Source: Shigella phage Moonfish. From it: a DNA stretch of 64,000 nt. Under the pieces are notes generated by a model. The model had not been told where the DNA came from, searched no databases, and saw only the letters and a list, made by a program, of their open reading frames with translations. The position numbers were made by a program, and so were the translations under genes. Positions within the stretch are counted from its first letter, which is position 1. Each line of letters begins with the position of its first letter. This document shows, one piece after another, positions 1-14,546 of this stretch. The stretch lies in the sequence record PQ613263. One strand, written 5' to 3'.

Positions 1-8
1 ATTCTACG

Positions 9-974
9 TTGCGTAACTGCACTACTAGTAGCTGCCGTATGGGGTTACATCTATGGGGGCAAAACGTTTCTATCAATATCACGGGATGCCATTTCCGCCG
101 TGATCATTATTCTACATTGGGTAACACGTTTGGCATTCGCATCCAGCCTAGGGTGTATGCGTGGAGTCCTGACCAGAGTTCAGGATCTCGTAGTGAAGCC
201 ATCGTTATTGACGGGGAAACTATGTGTATTTCTGTAGATTATGGCATCTATGTTGATGACTGCCTGGACTTGCAGATGAGTAATCTGGATTTGGATTACA
301 TTCGAAAGAATGCCGTGTCTATTATTAACGTTAATGGTGGATTTAACCTATCAGATTCGTGGATAGCTGGCGATGGTGAGTCCACAGAGCAATTTTTTGC
401 AGTTTCTTTAAACGCTAACGCAATCCAACAACAGAAATCAATTACTGGTTTGCACTGTAATTTGCATAATGCCAACCCCCTCAATAATAACATTGGTATT
501 AACATTGCTGGCCAAAATGTTGGGCCTGTATATATCGGCCAGTCTACGTTTGTCGGTGGGTGGTCGGGTATAGCAATTTTTAACCATACAAGTGGGGGTA
601 TTGTTATTGATTCGTGTACTTTGGCAAATCAGTTGTACCTAACTGGTTCTAGTGATGTTGTAGTGCAAAATTCTGGATTAACTGGTATTGAGGAAACATT
701 TAAGCCTTCCAATTCTCATCATTACTATCGTTCTAATAGAGGCACACCTGCCACTAATGGGATAGTAAATGTTCCTGTTGCTAGTGGGGCCACTTCAGGA
801 ACATTAACTATACCTAATGCAGACACAACTAAGTCGTATAGCGTTCGCCCATGGGTAGTTGACCCAGCTACTGCAAACGATACTGCTTCCTGCTCTGCTG
901 GTGTAATTACAGTAAACAGGCCTATAGCAGTAGGTATCCCACTCCCATCTACAGTGGAATACTCTTTGTTTTAA
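9..974 (+). CDS. C-terminal part of a tail/appendage protein (beta-helix-like); 5' end probably lies outside the window
   Basis: ORF runs from the window edge; Gly/Asn/Thr-rich repeats typical of tailspike beta-helices; sits upstream of the lysis and head genes. Confidence 0.4.
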   Translation: MRNCTTSSCRMGLHLWGQNVSINITGCHFRRDHYSTLGNTFGIRIQPRVYAWSPDQSSGSRSEAIVIDGETMCISVDYGIYVDDCLDLQMSNLDLDYIRKNAVSIINVNGGFNLSDSWIAGDGESTEQFFAVSLNANAIQQQKSITGLHCNLHNANPLNNNIGINIAGQNVGPVYIGQSTFVGGWSGIAIFNHTSGGIVIDSCTLANQLYLTGSSDVVVQNSGLTGIEETFKPSNSHHYYRSNRGTPATNGIVNVPVASGATSGTLTIPNADTTKSYSVRPWVVDPATANDTASCSAGVITVNRPIAVGIPLPSTVEYSLF

Positions 975-2767: not shown

Positions 2768-5038
2768 ATGGAACACCAAGATACTATGAAGCCGTTACCA
2801 GACCCGGCTCAATCGGATAAGCTGACAGACTGGAAGAAGGAACCAAGCATCCAACTACTAAAGGGTGACTTGGAATCAGCCAAGCCTGCTCATGATGCCA
2901 TCATGTCCCAGATTCGTGAGTGGAATGACTTGATGGAAATCAAGGGTAAGGCTAAACCCCCAAAGGTTAAGGGACGATCACAAGTCCAACCTAGACTGGT
3001 TCGCCGTCAGGCAGAGTGGCGATATGCACCATTGTCTGAACCATTCCTCTCATCCAGTAAACTCTTTAAACTAACTCCGGTTACTTTTGAAGATGAGTTA
3101 GCTGCTCGACAGAATGAGTTAGTTCTTAATTACCAATTCCGTACACAGCTTAACAAAGTGAAGCTAGTGGATGATTACGTACACAGTGTTGTAGATGATG
3201 GTACTGGTATCGCTCGTATTGGGTGGGAACGTAAGACCGTTAAGATTAAAACAGAAACCCCAGTATTCCAGCTGTATCCAATTGAGAACCAGGAACAGGC
3301 AGATGTTCTTCAACAGGCTTTACAACTTCAAGAAGAAAACCCTCGTGAATATGATGAAACAATGCCAGAGGATATTAAGGAATCTGTTAACTACTTCAAC
3401 GAAACTGGAGAAGCTACTTATGCAATCCAGACTGGGGTTACAGAGGTAGAGGTAGAGAAAGCACTGGTTAACAGACCTACCGTTGAAATGCTTAATCCTA
3501 ATAACGTAGTTATTGACCCAAGCTGTAATGGTGATTTGGATAAGGCTCTGTATGCGGTTATCTCTTTTGAGACATGCAAAGCAGACCTCATGAAGAATAA
3601 GGACCGTTATCACAATTTAGATAAGATTGACTGGGAAAGCTCCAGCCCTATGACTGACCCAGACCATGAGAGTAAAACCCCTAGCGACTTCCAGTTCAAG
3701 GATTCGCTCCGTAAGAAAGTAATTGCTTATGAGTACTGGGGATTTTACGACATCAACGATGATGGTTCACTGGAACCAATTGTTGCTACCTGGATTGGTT
3801 CTACTCTTATCCGTATGGAGAAGAACCCATTCCCGGATGGTAAGTTACCTCTGGTAGTTGTTCCATACATGCCCCGTAAACGTGAACTCTATGGTGAAGC
3901 TGATGCTGAACTGTTGGGAGATAACCAAGCTATTCTTGGTGCAACTATGCGTGGGATGATTGACCTGTTAGGCCGAAGTGCTAATGGACAACGTGGTTAT
4001 CCTAAGGGGATGTTGGATACCCTGAACCGTCGTCGATATGACGATGGTCAAGACTACGAATATAACCCAATGCAGGGTAATCCTAGTCAGGCCATTATGG
4101 AACATAAGTTCCCTGAGTTACCTCAGTCGGCAATAGTAATGACCCAGATGCAAAACCAGGAAGCGGAATCATTAACTGGGGTTAAAGCATTCTCTGGTGG
4201 TGTAACTGGTTCAGCTTATGGAGACGTAGCTGCCGGTATACGTGGTGCACTGGATGCAGCATCCAAACGTGAGATGGCAATCCTTCGTCGATTAGCTAAG
4301 GGTATGGCAGACATTGGTACTAAGATATGTGCAATGAATGCTGTGTTCTTATCTGAGAAGGAAGTAGTACGTATTACCAATGAACAGTATGTAGAGATTA
4401 ACCGAGAAGACCTTAAAGGTAACTTCGACATTGAGGTTGACATTAACACTGCTGAAATTGATAACCAGAAATCCCAGGACTTGGGCTTCATGGTTCAAAC
4501 GTTAGGTAACACAGTTGACCAGTCTATTACGTTATCTCTTGTAGCTAAGATTGCGGAACTTAAACGTATGCCTGACCTTGCACATGAGTTACGTACTTGG
4601 CAACCACAGCCTGACCCCTTGGACGAACAGCTTAAGCAATTGGCAATTCAGAAAGCACAGCTTGAGAATGAAGAGCTGCAAAGTAAGATTGCACTCAATA
4701 TGGCTAAAGCTAAAGAGGCTGCTTCTAGTGGTGACCTTAAAGACCTGGATTATCTGGAACAGGAATCTGGTACTAAACATGCTCGTGATATGGAAAAACA
4801 AAAAGCACAATCTCAAGGAAACCAGAACCTTCAGATAACTAAGGCATTGACAACACCTACCAAAGAAGGTGAAACTACCCCCAACATATCTGCTGCTGTT
4901 GGATATAACACTTTGACTAACGGGAACTCTCCACAAGAACGTGACCTAGCTGCTCAGCAAGACCCGGCTTATTCACTTGGTTCCCAATACTATGACCCTA
5001 GCCAAGACCCAGCATCGGCTCTTGGCATGAACTTGTAA
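2768..5038 (+). CDS. Portal protein (N4 gp59-like)
   Basis: 756-aa ORF upstream of head genes; size and position match the N4-type portal; low-complexity acidic C-terminus. Confidence 0.5.
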
Positions 5039-6652: not shown

Positions 6653-7855
6653 ATGTTAAACTATAACGCTCCAATTGACGGTCAGAAATCTAGTATTGAT
6701 GGTGCTGGTTCCGACCAGATGAATACCTTTTACTGGCTGAAGAAGGCTATTATTCAGTCCCGTAAAGACCAGTACTTCATGCCACTGGCTAACACCATTA
6801 ACATGCCGAAAAACTACGGTAAGACTGTTAAGGTGTATGAGTACGTTCCTCTGCTCGACGACAAGAACATTAACGACCAGGGTATCGATGCTAATGGTGC
6901 TACCATCGTTAACGGTAACCTGTATGGTTCTTCTAAAGACGTTGGTAACATCACCTCTAAACTGCCTCTGCTGACAGAGAATGGTGGCCGTGTTAACCGT
7001 GTAGGCTTTACCCGCCTGTCTCGTGAAGGTTCTATTCATAAGTTCGGTTTCTTCTACGAATTTACTCAAGAGTCCCTGGACTTTGATTCTGATGACCAAC
7101 TGAAAGAACACCTGTCTCGTGAACTGCTTAATGGTGCTATTCAGTTGACTGAAGCTGTTCTCCAGAAAGACTTGCTGGCTGCTGCCGGTACTGTACTGTA
7201 TGCAGGTGCAGCTACCTCTGATGCTACCATCACTGGTGAAGGTGCTACCCCGTCTGTAGTTTCTTATAAGAACCTGATGCGTCTTGACCAGATTCTTACT
7301 GAGAACCGTACCCCGACTCAGACCACTATCATCACTGGTTCCAAGCTGACTGATACCAAAGTACTTGGTGGTACTCGTGTAATGTACGTTGGTTCTGAAC
7401 TGGTTCCAGAACTGAAAGCGATGAAAGACCTGTTCGGTAACAAAGCATTCATCGAAATTCAGCACTATGCTGATGCTGGTACTCTGATGAATGGTGAAGT
7501 TGGTTGTATCGACAAGTTCCGTATTATTCAGGTTCCTGAGATGCTGCATTGGGCAGGTGCTGGTGCTGCTGCAACTACTAACCCGGGCTACCGTTCTTCT
7601 ATGGTTGGTGGTGAAGAACACTACGATGTATTCCCGATGCTGGTAGTTGGTGATGACTCCTTCTCTACCATTGGCTTCCAGACTGATGGTAAGTCTGTTA
7701 AGTTCTCCATCATGACTAAGATGCCGGGTAAAGAAACTGCTGACCGTAATGACCCATATGGTGAGACTGGCTTCAGTTCAATCAAGTGGTACTACGGTAT
7801 CCTGGTTAAACGTCCAGAGCGTCTGGCCCTGATTAAGACTGTTGCTCCTCTGTAA
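6653..7855 (+). CDS. Major capsid protein (N4 gp56-like)
   Basis: 400-aa ORF with strongly biased codon usage; position between scaffold-like gene and a strong terminator; size matches N4 MCP. Confidence 0.6.
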
Positions 7856-8634: not shown

Positions 8635-9477
8635 ATGATTATGTCTTGTTCTGCTGAGGTAGAAGCTAACCGACTCCTAGAAGAGTTAACTAAGGGTGAT
8701 GACTTTACCCTTCCCGATATTGATATGTCCGGTCCTGAATGGGATATCCCAGGTGGGGATGATTCTCCAATCTTTGGTGCTATTACCAAAGTAACCAATG
8801 AATCACTTACTACCCGCGAAGTAGGTGGTAGTGGTACGTTTGATGCATTAATGGAATCTGCACACAATCACCTTAAAGCTGAGTTTAAAGCTAATCGTAT
8901 TACCGGTGGTGAGTATACCAAGGCATATATTGCTATGATGGAATCTTGCATGGGGAATGCTGTTCAGTTCTTACTTGGTCGTGACCAAGCATACTGGGCT
9001 GCTGCTATGGCACAGATTCAGGCAGTTACTGCTCGTGTTCAACTGGCAACCTCTAAAGCACAGTTTGTACTGGCTAAGATTCAGGCACTGTCCGCTAAGA
9101 GTGAATATGCTCTTACTAAGATGAAGATTGCTACTGAGTCTGAAACGTACTGTGCTGCATTGTTTAATGCTAGTCAGATGTTACCTCAACAGCTTAAGCT
9201 GATTACAGAACAGACCGAAGCACAACGTGCACAGACTCTGGATACCCGTACTGATGGTACTGCCGTTAAAGGTTCTGTAGGTAAACAGAAAGAGTTGTAC
9301 ACCCAACAGATTACTTCTTACCAACGTGATGCAGAAGTTAAAGCATCTAAGCTGTTTACTGATGCATGGATTACTCAGAAGACTATTGATGAAGGCTTGA
9401 ATCCACCTAATGGTTTCACTAACGCAAGTATTGATACTATTCTGACCAAGCTGAAGTCTAACAACGGGCTGAACTAA
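8635..9477 (+). CDS. Hypothetical virion protein (N4 gp54-like by position)
   Basis: 280-aa ORF, coiled-coil-rich. Confidence 0.4.
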
Positions 9478-9478
9478 T

Positions 9479-12121
9479 ATGGGCTTATTCAGTGGGAAGA
9501 CCAAAGTATACGTAGCATCCTCTGTCTATAACATGGCAGGGGATATACAGAAACGTCCAAACTATATGAAGACTGTGGTCATTGGTAAGATTGTTGCTGA
9601 TACAGGATTTACTATGGCAGACACTATCTCTGATAGTTATCTGAATGGACCGGGCATTCGTATGCGACTGTTCTCCGGCTGGAGTAAGAACCACTATGAC
9701 TCAGTAGTTGGTATGGCAGGTTCTTCATTAGGTGTACTAGCTAAGATTGACCCTACTGTTATAGAGGGACAAATTACCCCACCTGCTGGAGAATCTGTCT
9801 ATGTTCAGGCAGCAGAGATTGGCTTTGCTGACTTTGAACAATGGTGTGACCAGTATCTTTATGAGAATGCCCCTAGTCGAATCATGGAACGATTCGACGT
9901 AGACATTGATGAAGATACTAATGAGATTACTATGACCTCCTTAGATGGAGGTTCTACTATTACATTCACACCTACTAACTTTGAACCAGGTGCTTTGTAT
10001 CTCTATGCTGATTACACATTCTATAAGTCCCCTTCTACCAATCCACCGGTAGTAGGGCCGACTACTGTCTACGATGATGAAGATGACCTACCTTCTACTT
10101 TGTTATGGACTACCGTTTCAAGTGATACTACAGCTAATACAACCAATCTTACTAAGACTATACAGACCCATTCTGTTTACTCTGATGGCAGATCGGATGA
10201 AGATAGTACTGTTACTGAACCAAGTGTGGATAACTGGAACTCCTACGTTAAGGTTTATCGTAGAGGATTCACTGAGAAACCCAATGATGTAACTGTAGTT
10301 GTATCTGACAGGGTAATGACCCATACAAAGTTTGGTGAGATTCAAACCAGTACTGCTGTAACTACCAATGTTGTTGATTTAGGTGGGGGTGTTACCCGTA
10401 CTGACACAATCACTACAACTACAGAGACACTGGTTCGTAAGTATTCATCCCAGACTACTCGTACTGATACTGAGATGACTGCTGTTGGTACACCTAAGCT
10501 GCTTATCTACAAGCAGAACTCCGGTAATGTTGCTCTGGATTCACTGTTTGAAACCGAGGCTACTGATAACCGATTCTACCCATTCATCCCAATCAGGAAT
10601 GATAAACAGTGGGTAGAAAATGACCCAATCTACCCGTACTGCAAGAAGGCTCTTTATAAAGCTACTGGTGGTAAACTCAATACAGTAATGACTGAGCTTA
10701 AGAAGAATGAGGACATAGGTGATATTCAATACATTTATGGCTCATTCGGTGTGTCTCTTAATACCCCAGAGGATACTGCTAAGGAATACATCTATCGTTT
10801 CTTTCAGATGGCTACTGAAGCATTCCCACCTGACCCAACCTACCCTACATTGGAAGCAGTGATTGCAGGTTATCAGGCAGCAAATGATGCAGTTGATGAA
10901 TATGTAGCATGGTGGAACAGGCAGGAAGGTCAGATTGTTGGAACACCCCCTCCACTGCCAGAATACCCAGTCATACCTAAACGAGAGTTTAGGGTACATA
11001 GTAATAAGCAGTACAAGTACGACATGACCATTGGCTGGAACTATGTATCTGAAACTACTCATTCAGGTGAAGCATGGTCTGGTGCTAAGCAGGGACAACT
11101 TCGAGCCAGATATGCAGGAGATATAACTCTTACTCGCAAGAACATACGTACAGGTGCTAACAACAAACTGGAAGTTACTACTACGTTTTACTCTATGCAG
11201 GAGTACGAGTTACTTTGGCAGGATGGTAATGACACTTACCGTAAACTTAGAGTACTGGGTCTAAATCACAATAACAGGGTATACAAAAATAAATCAGTAA
11301 GTATTGACGTTGCCGAAGCAATGGGTGATGCAGAAGAGAGTGGTTTCATTATTCCACTGCACACTAACATCTACCGTTCAATGTCACTGGTTCGTAGTAC
11401 CCAATTGTCTACTGCTTGCTCTTACTTAGTGATGAACTCATATAAGAAGGTTAAGCAGAAATGGTATACATCATCTGCATTTAAGATTGTGGTTGTTGTA
11501 GTTGCTGTTGTTGTATCCGTATTCACTATGGGTGCTGGTGGTGCAGGTATTCTTGGGGCATATGGTGCAGTTGGTGCATCACTTGGTTTTGTTGGATTAG
11601 CTGCTGTAATAGTGGGTGCTGTAGCAAACGCTATTGCTGCAATGATTCTGGTATCCATCATCACTAAAGTATCCACTTCACTGTTTGGTGATAAGCTGGG
11701 CTTTATTGTTGCAGCTATTGCTTCAATGGTGGCTATGAACGTTGGTACTGCTATGTCTACTGGAACATCCTTATCCACCTTAGCTGGTGAGATGATGAAT
11801 GCCCAAAACATCATGCAGCTTACTAGTTCAGTAGGTAATGGTATTAGTCAGTATATTAATGCATCCACGGCTGCTACTATTCAGAAAGCAGAGAGTGTAA
11901 TGCAGCAGTACAATACTGATATGATGGCAATCAATAAGCAGTATGAAGAGATGTTTGGTACTGCTGGACAGGGTGTAATTGACCCTATGCAATTTGTGTC
12001 AATGGAGTCGTTGGATTCTTTCTTATCACGTACTCTTATGACTGGTTCAGATATAGCTGACATGTCTTTAAACATGGTTGGAAGCTACTCTGATATGACT
12101 CTTAATACAGACCTTGTTTAA
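9479..12121 (+). CDS. Large internal virion protein with Gly/Ala-rich hydrophobic C-terminal segments (N4 gp53-like by position)
   Basis: 880 aa; Thr-rich central region; C-terminal VVVVAVVVSVFTMGAGGAGILGAYGAVGASLGFVGLAAVIVGAVANAIAAMILVSIIT predicted membrane-inserting. Confidence 0.45.
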   Translation: MGLFSGKTKVYVASSVYNMAGDIQKRPNYMKTVVIGKIVADTGFTMADTISDSYLNGPGIRMRLFSGWSKNHYDSVVGMAGSSLGVLAKIDPTVIEGQITPPAGESVYVQAAEIGFADFEQWCDQYLYENAPSRIMERFDVDIDEDTNEITMTSLDGGSTITFTPTNFEPGALYLYADYTFYKSPSTNPPVVGPTTVYDDEDDLPSTLLWTTVSSDTTANTTNLTKTIQTHSVYSDGRSDEDSTVTEPSVDNWNSYVKVYRRGFTEKPNDVTVVVSDRVMTHTKFGEIQTSTAVTTNVVDLGGGVTRTDTITTTTETLVRKYSSQTTRTDTEMTAVGTPKLLIYKQNSGNVALDSLFETEATDNRFYPFIPIRNDKQWVENDPIYPYCKKALYKATGGKLNTVMTELKKNEDIGDIQYIYGSFGVSLNTPEDTAKEYIYRFFQMATEAFPPDPTYPTLEAVIAGYQAANDAVDEYVAWWNRQEGQIVGTPPPLPEYPVIPKREFRVHSNKQYKYDMTIGWNYVSETTHSGEAWSGAKQGQLRARYAGDITLTRKNIRTGANNKLEVTTTFYSMQEYELLWQDGNDTYRKLRVLGLNHNNRVYKNKSVSIDVAEAMGDAEESGFIIPLHTNIYRSMSLVRSTQLSTACSYLVMNSYKKVKQKWYTSSAFKIVVVVVAVVVSVFTMGAGGAGILGAYGAVGASLGFVGLAAVIVGAVANAIAAMILVSIITKVSTSLFGDKLGFIVAAIASMVAMNVGTAMSTGTSLSTLAGEMMNAQNIMQLTSSVGNGISQYINASTAATIQKAESVMQQYNTDMMAINKQYEEMFGTAGQGVIDPMQFVSMESLDSFLSRTLMTGSDIADMSLNMVGSYSDMTLNTDLV

Positions 12122-12578
12122 CAGGAGAATCCTCATGGATTTGTCATTCTTAACAGGCAACCAAACCCCACAGCCAGCGGCTATGTCTTGGATGTCTAAT
12201 AACAACCAGAACTTTAATACCCCAGCTATGAACTATAACCCAGGTGCTGCCATTGGTATGGGTGCAGATACAGGAGTAACCTCACCTACTTCTTTCTTGT
12301 CTGGTTCAGCTAATCAGTTGGGCATGAACGTACCTACCTTCCAACTAGGACTGGGTGCACTTGGTTCATTAGCTAATATCTATGGTGGTTTCCAGGCTAA
12401 TAAGTTAGCCAAAGACCAGTTGAACTTTACTAAGAGTGTTACTAACACTAACCTGAATAACCAGATTAAGTCTTATAACACTGCATTAGAAGACCGTGCT
12501 CGTAGTCGTGCTACAGCAGAGAACCGTGACCAGTCTTCAGCCGATGCTTACATTGCAGCTAATAAACTAACTCGTTAA
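12114..12578 (+). CDS. Hypothetical virion protein
   Basis: 154-aa ORF overlapping the stop of the upstream gene by 8 nt. Confidence 0.4.
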   Translation: MFNRRILMDLSFLTGNQTPQPAAMSWMSNNNQNFNTPAMNYNPGAAIGMGADTGVTSPTSFLSGSANQLGMNVPTFQLGLGALGSLANIYGGFQANKLAKDQLNFTKSVTNTNLNNQIKSYNTALEDRARSRATAENRDQSSADAYIAANKLTR

Positions 12579-12590
12579 TAGGAAACCATC

Positions 12591-14546
12591 ATGGCTCAAA
12601 TTACATGGCGAAATGTTGACGCACCTAACTTCTCTGGAGTTGGTGACAGCATTCGCACATTTGGCAGCATGATTGGTAACGCTACCTCCGGCTTAAGTGA
12701 TGCACTGGGTAATTTCCAGAACGCTGCTAAGCAGGAGGCTGGCAATGCCGTCATGATGAATGCTATGCAATACCAAGACCCTACTGAGTATCGTAATGCT
12801 TTGGCATCTGGTGCACTGTTTCAGGGGGTTGACCCTTCTCTGGTAAACCAACGTACTCTCCAGAATCTGGATGAGCGAGCAGGTACATTACTGGCTCAGC
12901 AAGGTCAACAGGGAACCAACGACTACAATGCTTATCGTTTTGGTCGTTTACAAGATACCAATACTGCATTGGATAATGCTTCCCCTGCTGTACGTTTACT
13001 GTCTGAGGCTTACCAGTCTGGGGACCAGAACCGTATTAATGCTGCACTGAGTCAGACTCGTGATGCACTGTCTGCACTACCTGCCGACCAGCAACTTGAG
13101 ATGATGAGTCGTCTACAGGGACAAGGTGGTCAGGCTATTAATCAAGCACAGAACCGTTTTGATTTGGGTGTGGCTCAACGTAATGATGCTGATAGTCAGG
13201 CAGCACAGGGTGTTATGGCCCAGATTACTCGTGGTGCAGAAAACCCCAATGATGCTCGTCTGTTGGCAGAAGCATATAGCAAGAATCTGTCTCCGGTTGC
13301 ACAGGCACTTTTGCAGGGATTACTGGCTAATGCTTACCCAGGTGTATATGGTAATGGTGTAGGTGCTGCTTCTGCTCCGGGTACTGCTGGTACTCGTCAG
13401 GGTTCTCCTTATGATGTTACTTACCAGTTTGCTGGTACATCTACTCCTATTACTCAAATGAGTATTGGTGATGTAATTAAACACCAGGATGGTATGAAGT
13501 CTAACCAGGGTGCTTCACCTGTTGGGGCATTCCAGATTAACCAAGCTACCCTAAAAGACTTTGCTCCCAAAGTACTTGGTTCAGATTGGCAGAGCCAGCC
13601 ACTTTCTCCTGAGAACCAGGATAAGATTGGTAAGGCTATCTTCGAACAGCGTAAGAATGGCAACCTTAAAGATACTTGGGCTGCACTTCCTAATGCTGGT
13701 GTCGGTGCTTATAAGGACATGTCATGGGAAGAGATTAAGCCAATCATTGCACAGGCTGAGGTTGGTGCTAATCCATTAGCTATGCGACAGACTGCACAAG
13801 GTAACCAAGCCGTATCTACTCTGGCTCAGGGTATGATTGGTACTCGTTCTATGCAGGACAATACCGGTAGCCTTAACACTGACTTCCTCGGTACTGTTAC
13901 CGACAATACTCCAGTAGGTGAGATTGCTAACCGTTTGTTGGAAGGCGACTTTAAGGGTGCTGACCGAAACTGGGTACTTAACCGACTGACCGATATTTCT
14001 CAACGTGGGAATATGTCACCAGCTATGGCTGCTGCTGTTATGCAACGTTCACAGACTGGTGTTCCAGAAGGTTACATTAGTCGTGCTATTGATGCAGTTA
14101 ACCCATTTATTACCAATGAAGCTGGTAATGGTATGCGTCTTAATGACCGTCAGGTAGACCAGCTAATTGAGGGTGTACGTCGAGGTGAACCACTGGAAGG
14201 TAGTGTACGTAATCTTGGGCGTGCACAGGCAGCACAGAACATTCAGGCAGCACAGACTGCTTATGATGCTGCTGTAGCTGCACTGACAAATACTCAGAAC
14301 AAGATTAACACCGGACAAACTGGTCTTACTGCATTGTTACCTGCTCGACGGGAAGCTGTTACCAGAGCTGCTGCAATGCTCCAAGCTGCACAAGGGCAAG
14401 TTCAAGCAGACCCAGCTAACCTGGCTCCAAGAGGTTTCCAGTCACAGTCTAGTGTGGACCGGGCACGAGCCAAGGAAGATGAAGAACGTGCTGCACGGTA
14501 CTTACGTCAGGCGCAAGGTTTACCTGAGTATATGCAACCTCGCTAA
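12591..14546 (+). CDS. Internal virion protein (N4 gp51-like by position), possibly with a lytic-transglycosylase-like motif
   Basis: 651-aa ORF directly upstream of the vRNAP gene; segment SNQGASPVGAFQINQATLKDF resembles the SLT signature region. Confidence 0.4.
   Translation: MAQITWRNVDAPNFSGVGDSIRTFGSMIGNATSGLSDALGNFQNAAKQEAGNAVMMNAMQYQDPTEYRNALASGALFQGVDPSLVNQRTLQNLDERAGTLLAQQGQQGTNDYNAYRFGRLQDTNTALDNASPAVRLLSEAYQSGDQNRINAALSQTRDALSALPADQQLEMMSRLQGQGGQAINQAQNRFDLGVAQRNDADSQAAQGVMAQITRGAENPNDARLLAEAYSKNLSPVAQALLQGLLANAYPGVYGNGVGAASAPGTAGTRQGSPYDVTYQFAGTSTPITQMSIGDVIKHQDGMKSNQGASPVGAFQINQATLKDFAPKVLGSDWQSQPLSPENQDKIGKAIFEQRKNGNLKDTWAALPNAGVGAYKDMSWEEIKPIIAQAEVGANPLAMRQTAQGNQAVSTLAQGMIGTRSMQDNTGSLNTDFLGTVTDNTPVGEIANRLLEGDFKGADRNWVLNRLTDISQRGNMSPAMAAAVMQRSQTGVPEGYISRAIDAVNPFITNEAGNGMRLNDRQVDQLIEGVRRGEPLEGSVRNLGRAQAAQNIQAAQTAYDAAVAALTNTQNKINTGQTGLTALLPARREAVTRAAAMLQAAQGQVQADPANLAPRGFQSQSSVDRARAKEDEERAARYLRQAQGLPEYMQPR

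Follow-up and report, generated by a model that had tools for sequence, protein, structure and literature searches.

Why should a protein of a phage particle carry a long run of uncharged, hydrophobic residues that reads as several transmembrane helices? This question is raised by an open reading frame (ORF) in the DNA of Shigella phage Moonfish (sequence record PQ613263), of which we analyzed a stretch of 64,000 nucleotides, called the window below. The ORF occupies positions 9479-12121 on the plus strand, begins with ATG and has 880 codons and a stop codon, giving a product of 880 amino acids (aa), exactly as given in a preliminary description made from the letters of the sequence. That description also took the product for a virion protein and suggested, from its hydrophobic C-terminal region, that it is ejected and inserts into the host envelope. 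Our analysis indicates that the product is a tail plug of the N4 gp53 type, the function of which was already published in 2025-2026 for the orthologues of phages N4 and DEV. We think it probable that this is the tail plug gene of a G7C-like N4-family podophage and that residues 670-716, together with residues 29-56, form the cork of its tail tube.

The protein was compared with known proteins and structures. In the BLASTP alignment with N4 gp53, the identity was 55% over 886 columns, that is, over the full length; the two proteins are of equal length, their genes hold the same position, and both have the protrusion called the beta-feather. The best solved structure was 9YFT chain FA, 'Gp53' (E=0, residues 1-879), and the second was 9ZE4 chain M, 'N4 gp53-like protein' (E=1e-14), which is the plug of DEV. 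All other matches in the structural searches were weak, and we read them as a generic likeness to the feather with its long, twisted strands. Among the PHROGs, phrog_2220 ('unknown function') matched over residues 1-879 (E=0); when fragments of the protein were used, it was again the sole significant match, and the hydrophobic domain was found in no other phage family of this collection. Pfam gave nothing at E<=0.01 with the whole protein, and with four fragments searched up to E=10 it gave noise only (Chordopox_A30L and Cor1, both under their cut-offs). The features that mark a Schitoviridae tail plug, namely full-length homology, the knot segments 29-56 and 670-716, and the globular core fold common to the solved plugs, were all found in the Moonfish protein. 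The parts of the gene to which we refer below are as follows, all on the plus strand.

9479..12121, plus strand: tail plug gene, orthologue of N4 gp53 and DEV gp74, 880 aa plus stop
9563..9646, plus strand: putative N-terminal contributor to the knot, aa 29-56, by homology to N4 gp53 29-56; helices predicted at 29-40 and 46-55
10091..10498, plus strand: Ser/Thr-rich beta-feather protrusion, aa 205-340, the most variable part, from the AlphaFold2 prediction and the N4 feather
11486..11626, plus strand: putative main knot-forming hydrophobic segment, aa 670-716, the tube cork, by homology to the N4 knot
11486..11665, plus strand: full 60-residue uncharged block, aa 670-729, the feature that the preliminary description had noticed
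11696..11752, plus strand: extra, marginally hydrophobic helix, aa 740-758 (Hessa sum 2.24, Kyte-Doolittle 1.85)
11651..12118, plus strand: C-terminal tail, aa 725-880, expected in the tail lumen from homology to N4 and low prediction confidence, with a conserved motif at aa 841-880

The tail tip of N4 has been reconstructed asymmetrically by cryo-electron microscopy (cryo-EM) (Bellis et al., Nat Commun 2026, PMC13434306; preprint PMC12633501; PDB 9YFT). In this structure gp53 is the single-copy plug of a tube made of 12 copies of gp54, and its residues 29-56 and 670-716 form a 'hydrophobic knot' of six short helices, which corks the mouth of the tube (PMC13434306). The model stops at residue 724; the last ~160 residues lie in the tail lumen, where they were not resolved and where the C-terminus adjoins gp52 (PMC13434306). 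The core of the plug is clamped by D9-D10 of one subunit of the gp65 sheath, which results in a 12:6:1 mismatch, and the plug is seen on full and emptied particles alike (PMC13434306). The authors proposed that gp65, on binding the receptor, pushes the plug to the side and that the plug C-terminus then acts on gp52 in the manner of a ripcord, after which come gp51, gp50 and the DNA (PMC13434306). In Pseudomonas phage DEV, the plug is gp74, which is held by the gp56-gp55-gp54 receptor-binding fiber, and loss of gp56 leads to loss of DNA (mBio 2026, PMC12892993; PDB 9ZE4 chain M). DEV gp74 differs from the Moonfish protein in having 740 aa and no beta-feather, and its structure-based identity to it is only ~13%.

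The statement that the Moonfish protein belongs to the virion is supported by data on its homologues: N4 gp53 was detected by liquid chromatography-mass spectrometry (MS) and modelled in the virion, LIT1 gp74 was found by virion MS, and gp70 of Moo19, a member of the Enquatrovirinae with G7C-like tailspikes, was found in the virion by MS. Earlier proteomics had missed gp53 in N4 and had detected its LIT1 orthologue with low coverage, consistent with a single copy. In Moo19, weak unassigned density is present at the tip of the tube.

We then compared the knot residues. The numbering of N4 gp53 and that of the Moonfish protein are the same from residue 609 to 835, there is also no shift at 29-56, and both N4 knot segments therefore align directly. 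Residues 670-716 are IVVVVVAVVVSVFTMGAGGAGILGAYGAVGASLGFVGLAAVIVGAVA in the Moonfish protein and VVVVVVAVVVSVFFTPAAGAGVMGTAASIGAALGFAGLAAIIVGAVA in N4 gp53. Because these two segments are nearly identical, the stretch that was read as transmembrane helices is most likely the knot-forming segment.

An alignment of 54 homologues, with identities from 95% to 29%, showed how this part is maintained. Every one of the 54 has an uncharged run of 42-81 residues, which in all but three lies ~150 residues from the C-terminus, and charged residues make up 0.2% of columns 670-716. G703 and N717 are invariant, and conservation is 90% or more at G690, G693, G699, G706, A709 and G713. Over the family, conservation is highest in three parts, namely the first 28 residues, 601-720 and 841-880. 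The hydrophobic block is thus among them, and a specific packed fold fits this better than a generic membrane anchor does. Small residues at every three to four positions and an invariant Asn in a hydrophobic helix would suit short helices that interdigitate tightly. The C-terminal part, residues 841-880, has an identity of 0.50, with E843, F848 and R851 invariant, and carries the motif ESxDxFLxRTLMTGSDIAxMS (11999-12118). The motif falls in the luminal part that was not resolved in N4, and it may bind the tube or gp52. The N-terminus (aa 1-28, 9479-9562), which reads MGLFSxKxKxYVSSxVYNMAGD..., has a mean identity of 0.69.

The same alignment was given to AlphaFold2. The model was confident for residues 9-658. 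In the feather it showed four strands of 24-31 residues at 211-334, where the block-mean predicted local distance difference test (pLDDT) was mostly above 90 and never below 81. The strands bear Thr, Ser and charged residues on both faces, for example VTRTDTITTTTETLV, and on this account the idea of the feather as an amphipathic insertion hairpin was not built on. The feather (about 205-340) is cleanly absent in 8 of the 54 homologues, which are DEV-like forms of 695-787 aa, and is shortened in three more. For residues 659-880, the pLDDT was below 50 for most positions and never above about 63. Such low values are expected if the region becomes ordered only inside the tube.

From these results we consider that the plug would work as follows. 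Residues ~60-660, which comprise the globular core and the long beta-feather, would remain outside the tube, and residues 670-716 would fold with residues 29-56 into a compact knot of short helices, in which the regularly spaced G690, G693, G696, G699, G703, G706 and G713 probably permit very tight packing. Wedged in the opening of the tube, this knot would retain the pressurized DNA and the luminal ejection proteins, and the last ~155 residues would reach up into the tail lumen. When the receptor is engaged, the plug would be moved sideways and its C-terminal part drawn out like a ripcord, and unplugging would open the way out for the gp52-, gp51- and vRNAP-like proteins and for the DNA (vRNAP, virion RNA polymerase). 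The present analysis provides the orthology, the synteny, the finding that the knot residues are conserved, and the prediction of the core fold, and plug position, single copy and knot come from the studies of N4 and DEV; that the behavior of these plugs carries over to this phage, and the ripcord step, we infer.

The hydrophobic block itself was examined as a sequence. A Gly/Ala-rich hydrophobic region is present as the preliminary description had claimed, but at residues 670-760, that is, ~30 residues downstream of the interval 640-720 that it gave. Its statement that the region is almost entirely Gly, Ala, Val and Ile suits residues 670-729, where these make up 75%, and does not suit 640-720, where they make up 54%. 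Residues 670-729 contain no Asp, Glu, Lys or Arg among 60 residues, and Gly, Ala, Val, Ile, Leu, Met and Phe account for 88%; within 670-716 the share of Gly, Ala, Val and Ile is 79%. A polar break (K730...D738 K739) follows, and then the hydrophobic helix 740-758. Kyte-Doolittle windows of 19 residues with values above 1.6 cover about residues 661-760. On the Hessa scale, two 19-mers were competent for insertion (670-688, sum -0.01; 710-728, sum -0.71) and two were marginal (691-709, 2.58; 740-758, 2.24), so that two or three transmembrane-like segments is a fair description of the sequence. When the plug protein was shuffled, an uncharged run of 60 residues was reached in 7 of 20,000 shuffles, and the observed 60-residue mean hydropathy of 2.17 in 0 of 20,000. 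Among the late proteins of the window, a comparable segment occurs elsewhere only in three scanning windows near the vRNAP N-terminus. This is the vRNAP segment at aa ~128-146, VGLGVANTLGGIAALGTGL, with Kyte-Doolittle values up to 1.78; it fits the published proposal that the N-terminal domain of gp50 contributes to an inner-membrane complex. Exactly opposite the hydrophobic block of the plug gene lies an antisense ORF of 130 aa (11422-11814, minus strand), which we rejected as a gene, because the long run of GCN/GTN/GGN codons almost certainly gave rise to it.

We next considered how the plug would be held. The plug-gene DNA has 96.4% identity to Escherichia phage phi G17 and 91-93% to many G7C-like phages, and by sequence the window is DNA of a Gamaleyavirus (G7C-like; Schitoviridae, Enquatrovirinae). 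In N4, the plug is held by gp65 D9-D10, and gp65 is paired with gp64, whereas Gamaleyaviruses lack homologues of these and have tailspike genes instead. A tblastn search with N4 gp64 and gp65 (E<=1e-3) gave no match in the window, which reaches upstream no further than the last tailspike gene, and none in the late region of Bas96, a Gamaleyavirus of which the complete genome is available. The controls gp63, gp67, gp68, gp53 and gp54 all matched in the same search, and for gp66 the match was confined to the first 72 residues. In the map of Bas96, the place of N4 gp64-gp66 is taken by two tail (spike) genes. When phage records were searched with gp65, it was found in N4-like, Achromobacter and Delftia phages among others, and no G7C-like phage was among the 40 records listed of 120 (a spread sample). 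The gp65 sheath, by which an N4-type tail-gating complex is recognized, was accordingly not found here; judging from gene content, the plug and the tube are kept, but an N4-type gating complex cannot form.

Several points weigh against the reading of this protein as a corking tail plug. The knot was not reproduced by AlphaFold2 for the isolated chain. By hydropathy, two of the plug segments would be competent to enter a bilayer, and the plug may have a later membrane role. The emptied N4 particles that keep their plug had lost their DNA in vitro and had not delivered it into cells (PMC13434306). One copy per virion in the mouth of a 12-mer tube was shown by cryo-EM for N4 and DEV, and the placement of the plug in a Gamaleyavirus tail tip is drawn from these structures; for G7C-like tails, the evidence is the weak density at the tip and the MS detection in Moo19. 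Finally, because gp64 and gp65 have no homologue in the window or in a complete Gamaleyavirus genome, the holding and release of the plug must differ from those in N4. Most simply, another protein, namely a gp66-like/gp63.1-like tailspike complex, would hold and release the plug, or the knot alone would hold it.

The suggestion that the product is an ejected (pilot) protein, of which two to four hydrophobic helices span the outer or inner membrane as part of a trans-envelope channel, agrees with the Hessa sums at or below zero of segments 670-688 and 710-728, with the Lys-rich flanks (KKVKQKW...FK) ahead of the first helix, and with the position of the gene directly beside the ejection cassette. 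Nevertheless we regard it as quite improbable, because the same residues of the N4 orthologue are resolved as a cork within the tube, and because the plug is present in a single copy, lies mostly outside the tube, and stays on emptied particles. The proteins that N4 ejects are gp50 (vRNAP), gp51 and gp52, and channel formation was demonstrated for gp52 and gp51 (PMC13434306), not for gp53. Moreover, three or four helices in one copy cannot make the ~35 Å conduit quoted for the channel of tail and ejection proteins. The ejection proteins of podoviruses (N4 gp52, gp51 and gp50; DEV gp72 and gp73; the internal virion proteins of T7 and P22, PMC4819975) are encoded next to the plug in the same late operon, and they and the plug are parts of one release cascade. 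However, ejection proteins are multi-copy, are stored in the lumen or capsid, leave the particle and form channels, whereas the plug has one copy, lies largely on the outside, and is still present on N4 particles that have been emptied. Two further accounts of the block start from its composition. If the plug were first inserted in the host inner membrane, where it would nucleate assembly of the tail tube before coming to lie in the tube, the hydropathy would be explained, and an exposed greasy segment of 60-90 residues would need shielding during synthesis; but the N-terminus has no signal or anchor, segment 29-56 can shield the block intramolecularly, and the N4 and DEV literature consulted gives no hint of membrane-bound tail assembly, which makes such a morphogenetic anchor very improbable. 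That the block is a functionless low-complexity stretch, a compositional accident, has its simple composition in its favor and nothing else; we find this hardly credible, since the shuffles hardly ever yield it and position-specific conservation over 54 homologues, in a family that counts 2,554 representatives or more, refutes it.

The block might also serve twice, that is, as the cork and then, once the knot is dislodged and unfolds with the C-terminal tail, as a segment that dips into the outer membrane; we consider this unlikely. There it would anchor the tail tip or nucleate the insertion of a gp52-like outer-membrane complex, resembling the loops of phi29 gp9, and this extension too has only a small chance of being right. 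The segments are transmembrane-competent by hydropathy, gp52 is the luminal neighbor of the C-terminus, for which the N4 authors proposed the part of a 'ripcord', and phi29 gp9 offers a precedent. The L loops of this tail-knob protein are, like the stretch discussed here, hydrophobic parts of a tail-tip protein, and they are membrane-active. Late in infection they leave the tail knob and form a barrel of hydrophobic helices positioned for membrane penetration. Xu et al. are said to have reported in 2016 that the loops lie inside the knob before infection. The two proteins have no relationship in sequence or fold, and six copies give a barrel in phi29, whereas one copy would give a knot here. 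In Gamaleyaviruses, which have no gp65 sheath, the tip of the plug may be the part nearest to the membrane. The plug of sheath-less G7C-like phages could itself meet the outer membrane and act as a gate and membrane probe, a monomeric counterpart of the gp9 loops, to which we give little credence. The tailspikes would then pull the tip down, the feather and core would sense the contact, and the knot, along with the C-terminal tail, would enter the outer membrane by unfolding, which seems to us a doubtful sequence of steps. It is likewise doubtful that the knot and C-terminal tail would be the first penetrating or anchoring element and would seed the gp52-like channel. Against such membrane contact, the N4 authors attribute the plug on emptied particles to re-binding through the same knot (PMC13434306), and the conservation of G703 and N717 is sufficiently explained by the knot fold alone. 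We retain the tail-tube cork as the best explanation.

The genes around the plug gene were also identified. On the plus strand of the window, the order is portal, major capsid protein, gp55-like, tail tube, plug, gp52-like, gp51-like and vRNAP, and this synteny is the same as the N4 order gp59...gp56, gp55, gp54, gp53, gp52, gp51, gp50. The genes that were located are listed below.

1076-1405: gp63-like gene
2768-5038, plus strand: portal gene
6653-7855, plus strand: major capsid protein gene
8635..9477, plus strand: tail tube gene, orthologue of N4 gp54 (68% identity; phrog_2050, virion structural protein), the structure that the plug would seal
12135..12578, plus strand: putative gene of a gp52-like ejection protein, 147 aa, 58% identity to N4 gp52
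12591-14546, plus strand: gp51-like gene, 651 aa
14632-25002, plus strand: vRNAP gene, 3456 aa

The plug gene starts 1 base past the TAA stop codon of the tail tube gene (junction TAATATG). For the gp52-like gene, the mechanical ORF call gave TTG 12114 as the start, which overlaps the end of the plug gene. We rejected this start in favor of ATG 12135, because the alignment with N4 gp52 begins at M8 and because an AGGAG ribosome-binding site precedes this ATG. The start is most likely ATG 12135, the same as in the phi G17 annotation. At the other end of the region, positions 1-974 (plus strand), open from the start of the window, encode the C-terminal part of a tailspike-type gene, which lies just upstream of the gp63-like gene and occupies the position of gp64/gp65 in N4. 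When its product was compared by blastp with its counterpart in Bas96, a tail protein of 642 aa, nothing significant was found (best E=0.66), and the gene looks like a swapped host-range module.

The closest public record, that of phi G17 (MH358458), is 68.3 kb long, ~3-4 kb below other Gamaleyavirus genomes. In it the vRNAP is misnamed 'translation initiation factor 2', the gp57-like gene is labelled 'tape-measure protein', a 77-aa ORF is labelled 'tail length tape-measure protein', and the plug, tube and ejection genes are all 'hypothetical protein'. The plug gene carries this label in public Gamaleyavirus records including those of phi G17 and Bas96, and a confident re-annotation as 'tail plug (N4 gp53-like)' is now possible.

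When 1.84 billion representatives (clustering at 50% identity) were searched with a profile, 2,554 clusters were found at E<=1e-3 and 1,357 clusters at the stricter limit of E<=1e-30, so that the family has at least 2,554 members at this level. The 150 matches listed were all close family members, and the matches listed fell into two length classes, a long one of ~880-930 aa and a short one of ~730-850 aa. The plug is a large, ordinary component of a widespread phage family. We think that transmembrane-like sequence in a virion protein need not imply membrane insertion, since here it would make a cork of protein. The plug is conserved over at least ~2,500 sequence clusters, and the partner that retains or triggers it is swapped by lineage, being gp65 in N4 and gp56 in DEV. 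The G7C-like phages thus offer a natural test of the coupling between receptor binding and unplugging where there is no sheath.

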